From positions 1 to 62,482 of IMG/VR virus record IMGVR_UViG_3300044819_000092: a stretch of DNA of 62,482 nt. One strand, 5' to 3'. The DNA comes from a virus (Duplodnaviria > Caudoviricetes). The notes beneath the pieces are model-generated. The model searched no databases. It was not told the DNA's origin and saw nothing but the letters and a program-made list of their open reading frames with translations. The position numbers and the translations under genes are program-made. Shown here in pieces: positions 7,529 to 55,496 of the stretch. The stretch's first letter is position 1, and each line of letters begins with the position of its first letter.

Positions 7529-7957
7529 CTAGCCGGCGACGACCGAGGCGTCCGGGACCCCAAGCTCGGCGAGCCGCTGCTGGTCCTCGATGTTCTTCAT
7601 CCACATGTTGCAGAACTCGACGAGGTCGGCCTGGCCCCGCTCGGCGCCGGTCCATCTCCAGGTGCCGCCACCCTCGACGACCTCAACGTACCGCTTGTAC
7701 GGTGCCGCGAACTGGTCGATGGCGGTCGGGAAGACGTCGCCCGAGGGGCTCACGTAGAACTCGACGTCCGGATCGGGGCACAGATCTCCATTCTGCTCGA
7801 ACCGATGCGCGACGGCGAAGAGCCCCTGGGCCAGGCAATCAATCGCCACCCGCATGAAGGTGCCCTTGGCGTTGTCGACGTACCGGGCCGCGCCCGGCTC
7901 GAGGCCCCGGACGAGGGTCTTGAAGATTTTCGTAGCTCGGCCATTCAGACTCTTCAC
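7529..7957 (-). CDS. Conserved hypothetical protein (DUF6908-like)
   Basis: AVAHRFEQNGDLCPDPDVEF motif. Confidence 0.65.
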   Translation of the reverse strand: MKSLNGRATKIFKTLVRGLEPGAARYVDNAKGTFMRVAIDCLAQGLFAVAHRFEQNGDLCPDPDVEFYVSPSGDVFPTAIDQFAAPYKRYVEVVEGGGTWRWTGAERGQADLVEFCNMWMKNIEDQQRLAELGVPDASVVAG

Positions 7958-8268
7958 GCTGCACGCTCCTTGACACCAATCTCTTTTTGAACGGCCGCCG
8001 AGCGGAATGCCCGGCGCGCCTCGGCCACAGTCCTGTAGAGCTTCACTTCCTTGTAGCGGCGCCCCGGACCCTCGGCGATCTCGTTGGTCCCGAGGATGCG
8101 CCCGTCGGGCATCACGTAGATGCGCAGGCAAGCGCCCTTCTCGGTCGGGGTCTTGTAAAGGGCCCCGACGAAGTAGTCCCCCTGCCAGGGCTGGCGCAGA
8201 TCGGCCGGGAGCCGGAAGACGCCGAACCGCAGGCGGTCCCACCACGTCGAGTCGCTCGCTGTTTTCAT
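7954..8268 (-). CDS. Hypothetical cassette protein (MKTAS...)
   Basis: ATG lies within a degenerate copy of the cassette promoter repeat. Confidence 0.65.
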   Translation of the reverse strand: MKTASDSTWWDRLRFGVFRLPADLRQPWQGDYFVGALYKTPTEKGACLRIYVMPDGRILGTNEIAEGPGRRYKEVKLYRTVAEARRAFRSAAVQKEIGVKERAA

Positions 8269-15486: not shown

Positions 15487-16974
15487 TCACCCGAGCTTGC
15501 GGCTGGTGCTCGCGGGGGCCTCGGGAGCGGAGGCGGCGCGGGCCCGGGTCTTGGCCCATTCCCTGATGGCAGAGATCTCCTCCTTCATGGTGGTCGCGAG
15601 CGGGATGGTCGACTGGGCCGAGGTGAGCAGGTGCCGGGTTTCGAGCGGGATGGAGGCGTCGAACGACTCGAACATGGCGTCTGTGACGACCGACTCGATC
15701 TCGCTCCCCGTGAACCCCTCGGTGACCTTGGCCAGCGCCTGCACGTCGAACGAGCCCGGAGCCCGTCCCCGATTGCGCAGGTGGATCCCGAAGATGATCT
15801 TCCGCTCCTCGAAGGTCGGCAGGTCGACCGCGAAGATCTCGTCAAACCGGCCCTTGCGGAGCAGCTCGGGCGGGAGCGCGGAAACCTGGTTCGCGGTGGC
15901 GACGATGAAGACCGGCCGGGCCTTCTCCTGCATCCAGCTGATGATCGTCCCGAACATGCGCCGGGTGACGCCGCTGTCCCCGCTGCCGCTGCCGCTGCTG
16001 CCCGCGAGCCCCTTGTCGATTTCGTCGATCCAAAGGACGCAGGGGGAGATGGCCTCCGCGAGCTTGAGCGCATCGCGGGTCCGCCGCTCGCTCTCGCCCA
16101 CGAGGCTGTTGAACAAGCTCCCCACGTCGAGCTTGAGGGTCGGGACGCCGAGCGCAGTCCCGATGGCCTTCGCCGAGAGCGACTTGCCGGTCCCCGGGAC
16201 GCCCACGAGCAGCACGCCCTTCGGCTGGGGCAAGCCATACTCCACGGCCTCGGGCGACCAAGCCCGACGACGGCGGAGGATCCACGCCTTCAGCACCTCG
16301 AGCCCGCCGATCCCCTCGACGCCGCGGGGATCTGGCTCGACGATTTCGAGGAGCCCCGTCCGCTTCACGGCCTTGATCTTCTCGCGGTAGATGACCGCCG
16401 GGTCGAACCCCTTCATCTCCACGAACGACAGCGACAAGGCATTCTCGGCCTCGCTGGCGGTGAGCCCGCCGAGGGCCCGGAGGAGCTCGGGGCTCGCGGC
16501 CGGAGGAAGCCCGGCGCTCTCGGCGATCCCGGCGACGATGGCGGCAAGCTCCTCCGCGCTCGGCATCTCGTAGTCAAGCACCACCACGAGCTTCTCGAGC
16601 GTCGGGTGGGGCTGGAAGCTGTTCGCCAGGATGACGACGGACGAGCCGCCCGCCGGCGCCGCAGCCAAGAAGTCGCGGAAGGTCCGGAGCAGGATCGGAT
16701 CCCGGTCAAAGGGCCAGGTGTGCGGATCGCGCAGGATGAAGACGGTGTTCTCGCGGCGCTGGCTGCACGCCGCCATCAAGTCCTGCGTGTCGTCGATGGC
16801 CCGTCCGCCGGCGGAGACGTCCCGCATCCCCTCGGTCGCGCTCCACGTCACGATGCTTCGGCCCACCTCCTTGGCGGCGGCGATGACGTCGGCGCAGGCG
16901 CGGCCCTCGTCGCTGGTCTGAATGGCAATGGCCGGAAAAGCAGCCTTGAAATAGTTGCGCAGCACGGTCTTCAT
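15487..16974 (-). CDS. Ycf46-like AAA+ ATPase
   Basis: Walker A GVPGTGKS, Walker B LWIDEIDK, LPPELLRKGRFDEIF. Confidence 0.9.
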   Translation of the reverse strand: MKTVLRNYFKAAFPAIAIQTSDEGRACADVIAAAKEVGRSIVTWSATEGMRDVSAGGRAIDDTQDLMAACSQRRENTVFILRDPHTWPFDRDPILLRTFRDFLAAAPAGGSSVVILANSFQPHPTLEKLVVVLDYEMPSAEELAAIVAGIAESAGLPPAASPELLRALGGLTASEAENALSLSFVEMKGFDPAVIYREKIKAVKRTGLLEIVEPDPRGVEGIGGLEVLKAWILRRRRAWSPEAVEYGLPQPKGVLLVGVPGTGKSLSAKAIGTALGVPTLKLDVGSLFNSLVGESERRTRDALKLAEAISPCVLWIDEIDKGLAGSSGSGSGDSGVTRRMFGTIISWMQEKARPVFIVATANQVSALPPELLRKGRFDEIFAVDLPTFEERKIIFGIHLRNRGRAPGSFDVQALAKVTEGFTGSEIESVVTDAMFESFDASIPLETRHLLTSAQSTIPLATTMKEEISAIREWAKTRARAASAPEAPASTSRKLG

Positions 16975-18278: not shown

Positions 18279-18791
18279 TCACGTCGCTCCCGTTTGCGCG
18301 TGGCGCCCCGCCGCCGGTCCGGATGGTGTCCGGGGGCCGAGCCCGCTCCGCTGCGCCCAGGCCGCGATGGCGCAAGCATCGGCCTGGTCCTCGGGCAGCG
18401 CGATCCCGAACCGCTCGAGCGCCCACGCGATGCACGCGAGCTTCCGCTCCGGGCCCGGCGTCCGGGTGGTCATGCGGCCGGCCAGGATCACCGGCTGCCA
18501 GGTGGACGCGAGGACCGTCACCGTCGCGAGCCCGCGCCGCTCGAACGCCTGCAGCCACCGGCCGAGCAGCCGAGAGAGGACGAGGCCGGTTGAGTTGTTC
18601 AGCCTGACGAAGACGTCCTCGATCGCGACCACCTCGGGCTTGAACGTCGCGATGGTGTCGGCCGCGCGCTCCACCGCCTGCCAGTCATTCACCTCGCAGA
18701 GCCCGCGCCGGAGGATGCGCGCGCCGCAGATGACCGCGATGCCGGTCCGCTCGGCGCTGTCGACCCCGACGATGACGGCCGTGTCGTTCAC
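18279..18791 (-). CDS. RuvC-like (RNase H fold) resolvase/nuclease
   Basis: IVGVDSA, VVAIED and DQADACAIA catalytic motifs. Confidence 0.85.
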   Translation of the reverse strand: MNDTAVIVGVDSAERTGIAVICGARILRRGLCEVNDWQAVERAADTIATFKPEVVAIEDVFVRLNNSTGLVLSRLLGRWLQAFERRGLATVTVLASTWQPVILAGRMTTRTPGPERKLACIAWALERFGIALPEDQADACAIAAWAQRSGLGPRTPSGPAAGRHAQTGAT

Positions 18792-19522
18792 GTAGAAAAT
18801 TCCTCGCCTCGCCTCGCCAGGCCCCGCCGTACCCCGCCTCGCCTTGCAACACCCGGCCACACCAAGCCCAGCCTCGCATCGCCACGCGGCGCCACTCCAG
18901 ACCCCGAACCTCGAAAACCGTTTGAGAAGAAGACCCTGCCTTGCCAGGCCACGCCTCGCCTCGCCTCGCCCCGACCAGCCTCGCCGTGCCTCGAACCTCG
19001 AAAAGCCGTTGAGAAGAAACCTCGCCGCTCCAAGCCCGGCCTAGCCGGGCCACGCAACGCCCGGCCGTGCCCTGCCTCGCCATGCCCTGCCGGGAGCCTC
19101 GAGAACCGTTGAGAGAGAACCCTCGCCCCGCCCCGCCGAGCCGTGCCGAGCCATGCCTTGCCACGCCGCGCCAGGCCCCGCCGTTCCTTGCACCGCCATG
19201 CCCCGAGCCTCGAAAAGTCGTTGAGAAGAAAACCCGTGCCTCGCACCGCCAAGCCTCGCACCGCCGCGCCACACCTTGCCTCGCAAGGCCAAGCCATGCC
19301 GCGCCGGGCCTCGCACCGCCGCGTTCCTCGAGAACCGTTGAGAAGAAAAGCCTCGCCTGGCCTGGCCCTGCCGCGCACCGCCCCGCCCTGCCAAGCCGGG
19401 CCGGGCCAAGAGCCTCGAAAAGCCGTTGAAGAAAAGCCGCGCCTCGCGCTGCCTTGCCTTGCAGTGCCATGCAGTGCCCGGCCGTGCCCTGCCTCGCCTT
19501 GCCGGGCCGCGCCCCGCCCTCG
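18791..19522 (-). ncRNA. Array of seven GGY-NN pentamer tracts separated by six conserved 26-28 bp linkers; putative guide-RNA array
   Basis: Plus-strand GCCNN tracts (pentamer count): 18801-18905 (21), 18933-18992 (12), 19019-19093 (15), 19120-19204 (17), 19233-19322 (18), 19350-19409 (12), 19436-19520 (17). Linker about GAGCCTCGAAAAGCCGTTGAGAAGAAAA. The repeat is seen directly; the RNA function is inferred. Confidence 0.8.
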
Positions 19523-19539: not shown

Positions 19540-20178
19540 TCATACCTGCGCCGAGGTCGCCTTTCCGTTCGTCCGGGTCGCCCGCGGTGGGATCACGACT
19601 CGGTCGCTGACGATGACCCACCCCACGACGTCGGCGGTCCCGAACGGGCCGCCCTTCTCGGGCCGGAAGTCCCCGAGGCCCTGTTGCTGGACCCCCTCGC
19701 CGAGCAACATCCGGATGGTCGCCTCGTCGAGGATGTTGTCGTTGATGCGCAGGTACACCTTCGTGCTCCAGGCGTTCAGGCGAGCGCGGTAGCGCATGAT
19801 GCGGCCCTTGGTCGCCGGGATGGTGACCGGCCGAGCGTCGATCTCGAACTCCGACGCCCGGGTCAACCTGTCGGTGAGGAAGAGCGGCGCCAGCTCGTCG
19901 GTGACGATCATCGCGGCCGGCACGATGTACTTCAACGTTTTTCTCGAGCCGCGCTGCTTGTGCGCTCCACCCGCCTCGCGGATGAGCCGCGCGAACGCCG
20001 AGCCGGGCAGGCACAGACCGCCCTCGTCGTCCCGGTAGACGGACGCCTCGCACAACGTCCGAGGATCCTCCGTCGCGATGTGCACCCGCCTCGTCTTCTT
20101 TTCGATCTCCCCGCTGCCGGAAAACCGGTGCAACAGGATCGGACTCGTCCCCTCTACCCATGCTTCGACTGTGATCAT
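19540..20178 (-). CDS. Stand-alone Cas7/RAMP-like protein (212 aa)
   Basis: N-terminal strand VEGTSPILLH, LCLPGSAFARLIREA helix, C-terminal Gly-rich loop GLGDFRPEKGGPFG; GGAG RBS; flanked on both sides by pentamer tracts. Confidence 0.75.
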   Translation of the reverse strand: MITVEAWVEGTSPILLHRFSGSGEIEKKTRRVHIATEDPRTLCEASVYRDDEGGLCLPGSAFARLIREAGGAHKQRGSRKTLKYIVPAAMIVTDELAPLFLTDRLTRASEFEIDARPVTIPATKGRIMRYRARLNAWSTKVYLRINDNILDEATIRMLLGEGVQQQGLGDFRPEKGGPFGTADVVGWVIVSDRVVIPPRATRTNGKATSAQV

Positions 20179-20235
20179 CTCGTTTCTCCGTTCTTTTTCA
20201 GGTTGTCTCGCGGCCCGCGCCAATGCCGCTCTCGT

Positions 20236-20390
20236 CTTCGATGGCGCGATGGGAAGTCCCAAGCCTCGCCTCGCCCGGACAAGCCCTGCCATGCCCGGCC
20301 CCTCCTCGCCGTGCCCTGCCCCGCCACGCCTTGCCGTGCCGTTCCCTGCCGTGCCTAGCCTGGCCGCGCCCGGCCGTGCCACGTTCCTCG
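20236..20390 (-). ncRNA. Single GGY-NN tract (24 pentamers) upstream of the RAMP-like gene
   Basis: 20263-20382 GCCNN x24, bounded by GTTCCTCG (as in the linker at 19323) and a degenerate linker CTTCGATGGCGCGATGGGAAG. Confidence 0.75.
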
Positions 20391-20391
20391 T

Positions 20392-20877
20392 TCACCTGCT
20401 GTCCCCTGCCACCAGACGCAACGGCTGCTCATCGTCATCGTCCGCGCCCGCCTCGCGGACGTAGAGCCCGGTCGCGCCGTCCCAGCACTTGGGGAACTGG
20501 CCCTTGCCCACCTGGTGCCGGCACGGCGTCGAGATGTCGACGTTCGCGAGCTCGGGGTGCGCGTCGATGTAGCTGCGCCACCGCCTCCGGGCGGCCTCGG
20601 TGTGCCGCTGCTCCGCCGCGAACTTCAGCCTCCACCCGTCGGCGTGCGCCCAGGCGCGCGAGCCCTCGGGCAATTCGTCCCGCATGGTGCGGGCCTGGAT
20701 CGCCTTCAGCTCGGTCGCCCGGGCGATTTCGCCGAGCCCGTGCAGGAGTTCGAACGGCGTTGGCTGGCCCGAGGGCGGGCCCTTCATGGGCGCGCTCCAG
20801 GGCGGATCGAAGAGCCGGCACGGGCCGCAGTTCTCGCGCGTGTGGACTGGCTCTCTCTCGGCGTCGGCTTTTTCCAT
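20392..20877 (-). CDS. Hypothetical protein
   Basis: ORF track; RBS-like GGAGG upstream. Confidence 0.6.
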   Translation of the reverse strand: MEKADAEREPVHTRENCGPCRLFDPPWSAPMKGPPSGQPTPFELLHGLGEIARATELKAIQARTMRDELPEGSRAWAHADGWRLKFAAEQRHTEAARRRWRSYIDAHPELANVDISTPCRHQVGKGQFPKCWDGATGLYVREAGADDDDEQPLRLVAGDSR

Positions 20878-20890
20878 GTCCCAACCCCTC

Positions 20891-21997
20891 CTACCGCTGG
20901 TTCAGGTGCTCGAAACTGATGCGCTCGGGCTCGCTCTCGCGACCGCGGCTCCTGGCCACGTTGTGCTTGCATTGCGGGCAGCCGGCGACTGGCCCCGCCC
21001 TCGGGAGCTTCTTGTGGCTCTCGCCGTTCTTGTGCAACTCGCAGTACGCCGAGCCCATGGGCTTGCGCCGCTCGGCCGAGAGCGCCTGGAAGTCCCTGAC
21101 GAAGAACGCGAACGGGTGCTTGGCCTTGAGCCTGCCGGGTGAGGTGTCGTCGAGGTACTCGGCGATGATCGGGCCGGCCCGGCTCTGCACCTCGAGGCGA
21201 GCGATCTCGGGCAGCCCGAGCAGGTACTGGGCCAGATCTGCCTCGTGCCGAGCGGTCCCGCCGGTGTACGTCGCCTGCCCGTACTTCGCGCACCACCCCT
21301 CCGCGAACCTCGCCAACCACCGCGAGGACGGCCACAGGAACTCCGGCTTCGTCGAGCCGAAGGCGCCAAGCGGCGGCGCTGCTGCCACCACGTCCGGCTC
21401 CGGCTCCGGAGCCCTAGGCGTAGCCTGAGATCGCGCGCGCTCCGGATCCGGATCTTCACGCTCTTGATCAAGTTCTCTCTTCGGATCCGGATCTTGCCTG
21501 GACTGGCCTTGACTTGACTTGACTGGTCTTGGGGGGCGGACGATGGGCGGACAAGGGGCGGACATCTCGGCGGACCTGGGGGCGGACAATGGGGCGGACG
21601 TCTCGAGGAGCGACGCCCCGTCCGTCACCTGTCCTCGCTGGCGGATCTTCTGGTCGCGCCACCGCTGGCGCAGGTGGTCCGCGCGCTCGGTCATCCGGAC
21701 GATGGCCCCGCCGGTGTGCTCGGCCCAGTTGTGGATCTCGGCCGGCCGCCCGTCGGCTTCGTCGATGAACCCCGCCGCGACCAGCGCCGCGTAAAGGGCC
21801 CCGTCGAGCGGGCGGTACTGGCAGGCGATCTCGATGTCGTAAGGCTCCATCCCGCCGAGGTTGCCGTCGGGGCACGAGCGGCAGGCCCAGCTCCAAAGCC
21901 GCACCACGTACCACGCTGCCTCGGGGTTCTTCAGCGCCGCGCAGAACCGCAGCGTCTTGCGGTGGCTCGGGAAGCCCTCGTCGATTTCGAGGTACAT
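20891..21997 (-). CDS. Phage replication initiator (replisome organizer)
   Basis: N-terminal SHRK...LWSWA...DG...LVAAGFI...IHNWAEH domain; central low-complexity linker with iterons. Confidence 0.75.
   Translation of the reverse strand: MYLEIDEGFPSHRKTLRFCAALKNPEAAWYVVRLWSWACRSCPDGNLGGMEPYDIEIACQYRPLDGALYAALVAAGFIDEADGRPAEIHNWAEHTGGAIVRMTERADHLRQRWRDQKIRQRGQVTDGASLLETSAPLSAPRSAEMSAPCPPIVRPPRPVKSSQGQSRQDPDPKRELDQEREDPDPERARSQATPRAPEPEPDVVAAAPPLGAFGSTKPEFLWPSSRWLARFAEGWCAKYGQATYTGGTARHEADLAQYLLGLPEIARLEVQSRAGPIIAEYLDDTSPGRLKAKHPFAFFVRDFQALSAERRKPMGSAYCELHKNGESHKKLPRAGPVAGCPQCKHNVARSRGRESEPERISFEHLNQR
21499..21600. repeat. Putative origin iterons inside the initiator gene
   Basis: GGCGGAC at 21535, 21546, 21557, 21569, 21581 and 21593 (11-12 bp period), next to GACTT/GACTG pentamers. 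Confidence 0.7.
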
Positions 21998-22001
21998 CAG
22001 G

Positions 22002-22472
22002 TCACGCCAGGTTCTTCGCGGCCGACGCCGCCGAGGTCGAGATCATGTCCTCGATCTCGAGCTGGGTCGGGGTGAAGGTCAGCCTCGCCATGAGCCCGCA
22101 GTTGCGGCCGAGGAAGACCCAGATCTCGTCGTGATACCAGGTCTCGAACTCGAGCCGCACCGTCGGCGCGCAGTCCTCGTCCGCCGCCTCGAGCGTGGCC
22201 TTGGTGCCGCGGAGCCGGTCGACCTTGCAGGTGTCCGCGCCCGCCACCAGCACCGCCTGGGCGACGACGCGGTCGATCCCGATGATCACCCGCTGCATGT
22301 CGCCCGCCTTCAACGCCGGCAGCGCCCGCTTGGCCCCGAGGCCGAGCGAGCCCGCGATCGAGGCGTCGAGCTCGGCGTCGAACGCCATGATGCACCGGCG
22401 CTGGTAGACGCCGTTCTCCGACGTCGCCTTCAACGTCACGCGCGCGATGCTGGCCAAAAGTTCAAGCTCCAT
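22002..22472 (-). CDS. Hypothetical protein
   Basis: ORF track; GGAG RBS. Confidence 0.7.
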   Translation of the reverse strand: MELELLASIARVTLKATSENGVYQRRCIMAFDAELDASIAGSLGLGAKRALPALKAGDMQRVIIGIDRVVAQAVLVAGADTCKVDRLRGTKATLEAADEDCAPTVRLEFETWYHDEIWVFLGRNCGLMARLTFTPTQLEIEDMISTSAASAAKNLA

Positions 22473-22486
22473 TTTTCAACTCCCTG

Positions 22487-22558
22487 CCGTTAGAGAAAAT
22501 CCACGCCACGCCTTGCATCGCCATGCCTCGCCTGGCCGCGCCTTGCCAAGGCACCTCG
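22487..22558 (-). ncRNA. Satellite GGY-NN unit (10 pentamers) with both half-linkers
   Basis: CCGTTAGAGAAAA, then GCCNN x10 (22500-22549), then GGCACCTCG; intergenic. Confidence 0.7.
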
Positions 22559-22562
22559 TCCT

Positions 22563-22757
22563 TCATTTCGGGACCCTGACCCGCCAGCCCCACGCGCCCA
22601 CGAGCTCGCCGTCGGGCCGGATCTTCCAGCACGTGAGGAGCGGCGTCCCGTCGGGCTCCCTCGCCGTGAAGACCATCGAGATCTCGCGGCCACCAGTGCC
22701 ATCGAGGACCACGCGGTCGCCCGGCCGGAGCTCGGCCAGGTAGTCCTTCATGGTCAT
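22563..22757 (-). CDS. Small hypothetical protein
   Basis: MTMKDYLAELRPGDRVVL...; coupled to the upstream gene. Confidence 0.55.
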   Translation of the reverse strand: MTMKDYLAELRPGDRVVLDGTGGREISMVFTAREPDGTPLLTCWKIRPDGELVGAWGWRVRVPK

Positions 22758-51593: not shown

Positions 51594-55037
<3,444 letters not shown>

Positions 55038-55040
55038 GGA

Positions 55041-55496
55041 TCACCAGGTGACCACGATCTTGAGCGAGCAGTCGTTCGGGAAGGACATTTGCTTTCCGTT
55101 CGCGAGGGTGGCCTTGACTCGAGCGTCGTACCGACCGGACGAGTAGCCGGTCCAATCGAATTCGATCTTCCCGTCGGTGGCAGGGGTGAGGATGGTGCAG
55201 GCGGCGGTGACCGGGGCGAGCGACACGTCCTCGCGCCGGATCGCGAAGGTGACGGTGGCGCCGGTCAGATCGACGGGCGCTCCGTCCGGCCCGAGCAAGG
55301 TCATCTTGAGGACGGGCGCGGTGTCTTGCTCGCCGAGGTAGATGGTCCGCGCGCGCCCGCTGCCCATGACCGTCGTGCCGTCGTTGGCGAAGAGCGCCTC
55401 GGTGCCCATGCGGTTGCCGGTCAGTCTGGTCGGGCCTGGCGACGAGACGAGCGCGCGGGTGCGCGTGCCCTCGATGCGAGATCTGAGACCGACCAT
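55041..55496 (-). CDS. Stand-alone BppU-like domain protein
   Basis: Near-identical to the N-terminus of the downstream fibre gene. Confidence 0.75.
   Translation of the reverse strand: MVGLRSRIEGTRTRALVSSPGPTRLTGNRMGTEALFANDGTTVMGSGRARTIYLGEQDTAPVLKMTLLGPDGAPVDLTGATVTFAIRREDVSLAPVTAACTILTPATDGKIEFDWTGYSSGRYDARVKATLANGKQMSFPNDCSLKIVVTW

Follow-up and report, generated by a model that had tools for sequence, protein, structure and literature searches.

A guide in the leader of a phage gene: an orphan VIPR vrRNA probably directed against foreign alleles of its neighbour

Introduction

The locus described here raises the question of why a phage should carry, in the leader of one of its own genes, a short guide-like repeat tract that resembles that gene without matching it well. 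An earlier note on this DNA had described the tract as an isolated unit of a pentamer satellite found about 2 kb away, and had seen in the resemblance a hint of allele exclusion or homing-like behaviour, of local guide generation, or of weak autoregulation. VIPR systems provide the frame in which these possibilities can be weighed. The guide of such a system, the vrRNA, has an invariable 3' tail behind its 9-16 YNNGG repeats, and its protein, Vipr, is a RAMP of ~20 kD that takes up one repeat per protomer, sequestering GGY and presenting NN, which pairs with double-stranded DNA while every third base of the target, usually the codon wobble, is skipped (bioRxiv 10.64898/2026.04.26.720920; 10.64898/2026.04.26.720927). 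Natural targets, recognized by an NN match of at least 80%, include competing phages, satellites and other VIPR systems (bioRxiv 10.64898/2026.04.26.720920). The locus bears on two questions about these systems, namely how vrRNAs discriminate between self and non-self and how new guides are born. The analysis presented below suggests that the tract is a guide against rival phages' alleles of the adjacent gene, to which the linked and mismatched own allele would be immune.

A VIPR system on a temperate-phage genome

The whole stretch of DNA that was analysed, referred to as the window, is the entire IMG/VR record IMGVR_UViG_3300044819_000092, a virus contig of 62,482 bp with 68.6% G+C, nearly all genes of which lie on the minus strand. 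Its annotated products include a phage integrase, a RecE-like exonuclease, a replication initiator, a RuvC-like resolvase and an AAA ATPase, and the window represents the genome of a temperate phage, recovered from a peat metagenome and equipped with a VIPR system. The sequence was found in two DNA metagenome runs (X1 and X2), the latter being a second peat metagenome that also holds a related phage, whose contigs cover the gene at 22002-22472. Searches of Rfam and for tRNAs gave no match. The features that matter for the argument are collected in Table 1.

Table 1. Features of the VIPR system, of the orphan tract and of the neighbouring genes, in window positions.
Feature	Position	Strand	Remarks
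RuvC-like resolvase gene	18279-18794	-	own cognate site at 18574-18623
Last array vrRNA, 17 units	18802-18886	-	stops 7 nt short of the RuvC-like start codon
Main array, seven YNNGG tracts (12-18 units)	18802-19516	-	downstream of vipr
vipr, 212-aa RAMP (Cas7/Csm3-like fold)	19540-20178	-	AF2 model and Foldseek; conserved glycine-rich loop
Upstream tract, 25 YNNGG units	20259-20383	-	without canonical tail; between the 161-aa gene and vipr
161-aa gene	20392-20877		flanks the 25-unit tract; no Pfam or PHROG match
Replication initiator gene	20891-21997		abuts gene 22002-22472, directly downstream
Neighbouring gene, 156 aa, predicted target family of the orphan guide	22002-22472	-	phage protein family
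Own-allele cognate site, codons 54-63, LKAGDMQRVI	22284-22313	-	14/20 NN bases, below the 80% criterion
Truncated 3' tail merging into the ribosome-binding region	22473-22500	-	seen when the orphan flank is aligned with six array tails
Orphan vrRNA repeat tract, 10 YNNGG units	22501-22550	-	2.1 kb from the main VIPR locus

Pentamer periodicity is confined to three places in the window, and the nine tracts found there comprise 10-25 units, each in one constant phase and 78-92% exact. Tracts of at least nine units occur only in the main array, the upstream tract and the orphan, all in minus sense, and when tract length was controlled by 20 block-shuffles of the window the longest tracts reached 5-7 units. 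Six of the array tracts are followed by a conserved, pyrimidine-rich tail of ~24 nt, for which no conserved fold was predicted, and the tail of the seventh is truncated to a few bases.

The protein encoded beside the array was modelled with AF2 (mean pLDDT 82.9), and a Foldseek search of the PDB placed Csm3/Cas7 of type III-A at the top (9ash_F, E 2e-6; 6ifn_F, E 3e-6; probability 1.00), with the top chains spanning E 2e-6 to 6e-5. Its family counts 1069 members at E <= 0.001, all of them unnamed, and 50 aligned relatives share an invariant loop (G167/G169/D170/R172/P173/G176/G177/G180, that is G-x-G-D-x-R-P…G-G) that resembles the D-W-R G-loop contacts described for the Vipr of SUSP1 (bioRxiv 10.64898/2026.04.26.720927). 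Among IMG/VR loci that encode Vipr relatives, 72 of 80 have one tract or more, and the strand of vipr carries 236 of the 238 tracts. No cas1, cas2 or other cas gene was found among the 20 neighbouring proteins scanned (13.7-31 kb). Because the repeats and the RAMP of the window fit the description of VIPR, what the earlier note had called a satellite is a vrRNA array and what it had called a linker is the vrRNA tail; likewise, its reading of the NN dinucleotides against codon positions 1 and 2 turns out to be the '1-nt skip' code that has been published for VIPR (bioRxiv 10.64898/2026.04.26.720920).

Such repeats are widespread, as indicated by blastn matches of the array in cluster F mycobacteriophages (20 records) and by a pattern scan that recovered at least 119 IMG/VR stretches, on contigs of 39-70% G+C. 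In the cluster F mycobacteriophages long YNNGG arrays lie within the early right operon. In Mycobacterium phage Florinda (L001, NC_028889.1) the array at 2417-2656 is annotated as the hypothetical protein FLORINDA_59, other records being unannotated there, and next to it FLORINDA_60 (199 aa) is homologous to Vipr, with 26% identity to the window protein (E 1e-7) and a G-D-W-R-P loop. Tracts are also sharply visible in viral contigs of low G+C content (39-56%; L002 650-1200, L017 430-1140 and L010 1310-2035), one of which (L002) has a 56-nt linker with a clear hairpin between tracts, and two of which (L017 and L010) have single tracts immediately upstream of the ribosome-binding sites of successive genes. 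A further contig that encodes Vipr (L140, 4177-14495) has 14 tracts, dispersed between other genes along 10 kb, and vrRNAs located away from vipr are therefore not unique to the window.

The orphan tract in a gene leader

The orphan consists of ten pentamers in one constant phase, nine of which conform exactly to Y-N-N-G-G. It lies in a 90-nt gap, bounded by the stop codon of the 64-aa gene 22563-22757 and by the start codon of gene 22002-22472, beginning 12 nt past the preceding stop codon and ending 29 nt upstream of the gene, that is, in its 5' leader. The isolated ten-pentamer unit that the earlier note had placed in the gap before this gene is thus present as described. As for the half-linkers, the 3' flank retains the first half of the array linker, and in place of the second half stands the ribosome-binding region of gene 22002-22472. 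By its anatomy the orphan is a genuine vrRNA of VIPR, a kind of system known since 2026. Since it keeps only half of the array tail, it may escape processing or loading. The region has also been exchanged in the relative found in run X2, where 287 other letters replace window positions 22418-22573 (154 bases, comprising the orphan and the 5' end of the neighbouring gene), which indicates that this part of the genome turns over.

Resemblance to the adjacent own gene

The NN series of the orphan agrees with its cognate site in the adjacent gene at 6 of 10 dinucleotides, exactly the number claimed previously, which corresponds to 14 of 20 bases; the match is in frame and on the same strand, and the skipped base is the wobble. 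The earlier note had cautioned that so short a match is only suggestive by itself, and this caution was well placed, because in the whole window the score is at chance level: a score of 14 is reached at three window sites (22285-22313, 15686-15714 and 52018-52046), 6 of 10 dinucleotides likewise agree at three sites, and all of 100 permuted orphan guides reach 14 somewhere in the window. The p value of the self match depends on the space searched, being 0.055 within +-1500 nt, 0.009 within 900 nt downstream on the same strand, and 0.003 within the neighbouring gene only, the last value coming from a set of 54 guide-by-gene tests. Across the nine window guides, the best self hits lie between 52% and 71%.

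The 156-aa product of the gene has no Pfam or PHROG match, and a protein atlas places it in unnamed viral clusters only. Its structural model is confident (pLDDT 90.7); it found no PDB match at E <= 0.001, and BFVD returned uncharacterised phage proteins only. The site matched by the orphan is overlapped by the best in-window match of an array guide of 12 units (19351-19410), which scores 16/24, in frame, at 22288-22322 (-); for this guide p = 0.01 within the gene, and it fits no foreign allele above permutation nulls.

Two foreign alleles fit the orphan guide better than the own allele

A more informative comparison is offered by homologues of the neighbouring gene from other phages. As NN fixes the first two bases of a codon, the fit of a guide can be bounded from a protein sequence, and the fits to foreign alleles given here and in the next section were computed in this way from the proteins P0003, P0190 and P0228, as ranges over synonymous codons. 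Two close homologues of the 156-aa protein (P0002 and P0003) were found in 5.8 billion clusters. The first, 87% identical, has the same ten residues at the site as self. The second, 81% identical, reads LKAADMEKVV at the aligned site and fits the guide at 17-18 of 20 bases, versus 14 of 20 for the own allele. When 20,000 permuted guides were run over P0003 under the most generous scoring, 17 was reached by three of them and 18 by none.

A full HMMER scan extended the family of the 156-aa protein to 104 members. In an alignment of 50 rows, a distant member (P0190, LKDHGMEKVV) also fits the guide at 17-18/20 and in the same columns, the next best rows scoring 13-16 and 14-16. When 3000 permuted guides were tried against 105 foreign family members, four of them reached 18 at some site. 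In sum of bases, the protein-derived fit of the orphan guide to the two foreign alleles amounts to 85-90%, in frame and at the homologous site. The homologue comparison that the earlier note had proposed for gene 22002-22472 thus came out in favour of its idea, and of the possibilities that it had raised, allele exclusion is the one favoured by the better fit of these two alleles.

The alignment also indicates the direction in which the own allele has changed. At guide positions 7, 8 and 10 the residue class specified by the guide is the commonest in the family (E in 22, K in 20 and V in 16 of 49 rows), whereas the residues of the own allele, Q, R and I, are rare (3, 2 and 4 of 49 rows), so that the own allele has moved away from the guide at just these positions. 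A more remote homologue, 51% identical, at a related locus (L121) has no vrRNA within 4 kb, and the best score of the guide there is 13/20. An alignment of the close homologues, searched against viral, genome and metagenome contigs, found no relative, nor did P0190 alone, and tblastn of four proteins against 202 sequences gave nothing further.

A second guide upstream of its own mismatched family

The earlier note had referred to another unit lying just upstream of a gene that it imperfectly matches, and this case was reproduced: the last vrRNA of the array, which directly precedes the RuvC-like gene, matches that gene in frame at 21 of 34 bases. The gene could be an ordinary phage resolvase. 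Among 13 foreign homologues of its product, P0228 is 76% identical and aligns without gaps at an offset of 10 residues, carrying VEDCFVRVNNETGLVLA at the homologous site where self carries IEDVFVRLNNSTGLVLS. The guide fits this allele at 26-28/34 (76-82%, a range that straddles the published 80% criterion) versus 21/34 for self; the first nine units are perfect, and the first 14 units agree at 24-26 of 28 bases (86-93%). None of 5000 permuted last array guides reached 28 against the RuvC homologues, the maximum being 25. A homologue at 42% identity (L202) is without tracts.

The nine window guides were compared with the Vipr, neighbour and RuvC families in 27 guide-by-family tests. Only two pairs exceed their nulls, both of them foreseen, and in both the guide lies directly upstream of the gene family that it matches. 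The other window guides show no excess over permutation nulls in the window or in the Vipr, neighbour or RuvC families. The best match of the first array guide (19437-19516) scores 21/32 and lies across the start codon and leader of vipr, at 20175-20221 (-), with a local p = 0.02; this guide may be aimed at other VIPR loci, the matched site being mostly non-coding.

Neighbour matching in other genomes

The earlier note had further asked whether orphan units systematically match neighbouring genes across genomes. An enrichment over control does exist, but it is weak, about 2-3 times. At mid-p <= 0.01, 301 guides from 121 sequences gave 15 matches in their own flanks, five in flanks of other loci and three expected; 342 gene-proximal tracts from 202 sequences gave eight own and two control matches, with 3.4 expected. 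Such a modest excess for own neighbours would be expected if own alleles are selected not to match; the more appropriate comparison is with foreign alleles, as carried out here for the phage of the window. In an all-against-all comparison of 426 guides over 2.1 Mb, hits of at least 80% numbered 134, versus 106 for permuted guides, and just five hits, with at least 12 units each, stand out.

Two arrangements from these genomes deserve separate mention. In one contig (L161), a 15-unit guide directly upstream of vipr (7894-7968) matches a gene 290 nt away (7564-7607) at 24/30 bases, and two of the mismatched units correspond to switches between the two codon families of Arg and between the two of Ser, which would be an escape from a wobble-skipping guide that leaves the protein unchanged. 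In two further contigs (L131 8969-9043 and L141 4806-4880), identical 15-unit guides match a site in a third VIPR-bearing contig (L025 2426-2469) in frame at 24/30 bases, with the first seven units perfect, and that site is likely a natural cross-phage target of this guide.

Proposed role of the orphan

These observations are best accounted for, in our view, if the orphan is a vrRNA guide against rival phages' alleles of gene 22002-22472, with the linked, mismatched own allele immune to it, and this reading is probably correct. By analogy with the characterized systems, we infer that the orphan would be expressed and processed, that it would be bound by Vipr, and that repression of the target would bring a competitive benefit. 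Since it begins only 12 nt after the upstream stop codon, it would be transcribed with the operon. Vipr produced from the locus 2 kb away would bind it, polymerising along vrRNAs so as to hide each GGY and present the NN pairs, and these would bind double-stranded DNA with every third base skipped, silencing the target. The filament would be directed to codons 54-63 of EKVV-type alleles in related phages, and the competitor's gene would be repressed. The own allele would be spared, as 4 of 10 codons differ and the mismatch at 6 of 20 guide bases keeps it under the 80% match of natural targets; the structural preprint nowhere uses the words 'mismatch' or 'seed' or the stem 'tolera' (bioRxiv 10.64898/2026.04.26.720927). 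A co-infecting or resident relative with a sensitive allele would in this manner be repressed while self is spared, and the last array vrRNA would act likewise on the RuvC-like gene family directly downstream of it. The distance from guide to own site is 188 nt for the orphan and 178 nt in the RuvC case; with guide and immune allele within 250 nt of each other, the two would travel together and recombination would rarely part them.

From this arrangement a broader and more tentative view can be derived, in which guides and resistant alleles form 'weapon plus immunity' cassettes, linked so tightly that recombination cannot part them, that spread among recombining phages as a selfish allele-exclusion module; we regard it as possible, although less likely than not. 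Moreover, as no acquisition machinery is known for VIPR, new guides may be born or become fixed next to a homologous gene, and the adjacency of guide and gene may show where guides originate.

Alternative readings of the tract

It could be argued that the orphan is a relic or by-product, namely a vrRNA in decay, formerly directed at this gene family or derived from it, and that it has ceased to be expressed, processed or loaded, so that the match records history and not function. Retention of only the first half of the tail, one degenerate unit in ten and the replacement of 22418-22573 in the X2 relative are what decay would leave behind; against it, nine of the ten units are exact and the phase is constant, two foreign alleles continue to fit the guide at 85-90%, the same arrangement recurs at the last array guide, and VIPR systems with one vrRNA and with variable architectures have been published (bioRxiv 10.64898/2026.04.26.720920). 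A relic is rather unlikely.

Less probable still is weak autoregulation, in which the 70% match would let Vipr bind its own gene loosely and damp its expression. Such a role would be in keeping with an own site 188 nt away from the guide that is read in frame and shares its strand, and with the finding that VIPR silences whichever strand is targeted (bioRxiv 10.64898/2026.04.26.720920). However, in the main text of the same work VIPR guides are reported to have no self hits of at least 80%, and perturbed NN pairing abolishes silencing (bioRxiv 10.64898/2026.04.26.720920). In addition, the foreign alleles fit the guide much better than self does, and at the mismatched positions the own allele has residues that are rare in the family, which points away from the guide and not toward it.

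That a short guide should resemble the adjacent gene by chance would be very surprising, despite the permutations over the whole window, which equal the score in 100 of 100 cases, and despite the hits of at least 80% that ten-unit guides produce over 2.1 Mb, 124 real versus 98 permuted. What speaks against coincidence is that foreign matches fall at the homologous site in two independent cases, with permutations at 4/3000 and 0/5000, and that none of the other 25 guide-by-family tests beats its null.

Translation of the tract, suggested by a 34-aa frame whose ATG overlaps the stop codon of the upstream 64-aa gene, by open frames that span all three arrays and by some cluster F mycobacteriophage records in which the equivalent array is annotated as a CDS, can practically be dismissed, given that the array is largely open in all six frames, as expected from its composition, that the strict 5-nt phase with fixed GG-Y and the co-orientation with the RAMP gene need no translation, and that the role of the vrRNA as an RNA has been shown experimentally (bioRxiv 10.64898/2026.04.26.720920; 10.64898/2026.04.26.720927).

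Relation to known systems

The window shares with the published VIPR systems its tandem YNNGG repeats with hypervariable NN, a small Cas7-like RAMP gene that adjoins them and shares their strand, the position of vipr downstream of one tract and upstream of an array, as well as NN matches to coding DNA in which the skipped base is the wobble, predicted targets in related phages and the lack of self matches of at least 80%. On the other hand, its tracts reach 17-25 units, compared with the 9-16 reported, and its tail is short and pyrimidine-rich with no predicted fold, whereas the SUSP1 clade has a pseudoknot. The window also differs in having an orphan vrRNA that lies 2.1 kb away from vipr and forms part of another gene's leader, and two guides directly upstream of the own, mismatched copy of the gene family that they match. 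The main text of the VIPR preprint does not describe a guide next to its own mismatched copy, and the word 'orphan' occurs 0 times in it (bioRxiv 10.64898/2026.04.26.720920); as far as could be checked, the proposed linkage of a guide to an immune own allele is a new arrangement.

Two further relationships deserve attention. With the backbone of Class 1 CRISPR systems, in which Cas7/Csm3 filaments form on crRNA, the system has in common the RAMP fold, its best structural matches being Csm3 (E 2e-6), and the periodic thumb that breaks guide-target pairing (bioRxiv 10.64898/2026.04.26.720920; 10.64898/2026.04.26.720927). It differs in that the VIPR guide is discontinuous, using 2 of every 5 bases to read 2 of every 3 target bases, in that VIPR is phage-borne, and in that the window has no CRISPR repeats and no cas1/cas2 among the genes annotated at 13.7-31 kb. 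CRISPR-Cas as such was rejected, the 'spacers' in the window being themselves pentamer repeats and the 20 neighbouring proteins giving no cas1/cas2 match.

The closest precedent for the proposed role comes from the freestanding homing endonucleases of T-even phages, which cause marker exclusion by attacking a nearby gene in the allele of the competitor, the phage's own linked allele being resistant. In both cases a phage-borne, sequence-specific agent would act against a competitor's allele and the linked own allele would resist it, as proposed here for the orphan; the difference is that recognition here is RNA-guided and that the VIPR types characterised so far repress rather than cleave. Ring proteins of the TRAP type bind triplet repeats spaced by 2-3 nt, and the tracts recall their binding sites in that an mRNA leader has some 10-11 repeats in which a fixed triplet is followed by a 2-nt spacer. 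A TRAP-type reading was set aside, as no TRAP-like gene was found, a RAMP gene lies beside the repeats and the spacers vary and specify the target. The RAMP gene and the fit to VIPR likewise led to a TRAP-like protein-binding leader, a Rho-loading site, a G-quadruplex, iterons and translated pentapeptide repeats all being dropped.

Significance and minor observations

The interest of the locus lies in the fact that two independent cases are found in one genome, in which the own copy deviates at precisely those positions at which guide and family mostly agree. They point to a concrete rule, immunity through a linked, mismatched allele, and suggest that close relatives are the main rivals of such phages, besides satellites or unrelated prophages. 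From a practical perspective, vrRNAs may sit kilobases away from vipr inside operon leaders, and annotation pipelines call some of them protein-coding, for example in cluster F mycobacteriophages.

Two other repeat regions were observed in the window. Within the replication-initiator gene, positions 21493-21599 hold approximately six copies of a 12-nt repeat, preceded by 5/10-nt repeats, and the 12-nt copies may be origin iterons inside the initiator gene, as in lambdoid phages. Finally, positions 53575-54461 and 54729-55342 hold long collagen-like 9-nt repeats (Gly-X-Y) and a 318-nt tandem duplication at 90% identity, which probably sit in tail-fibre genes.
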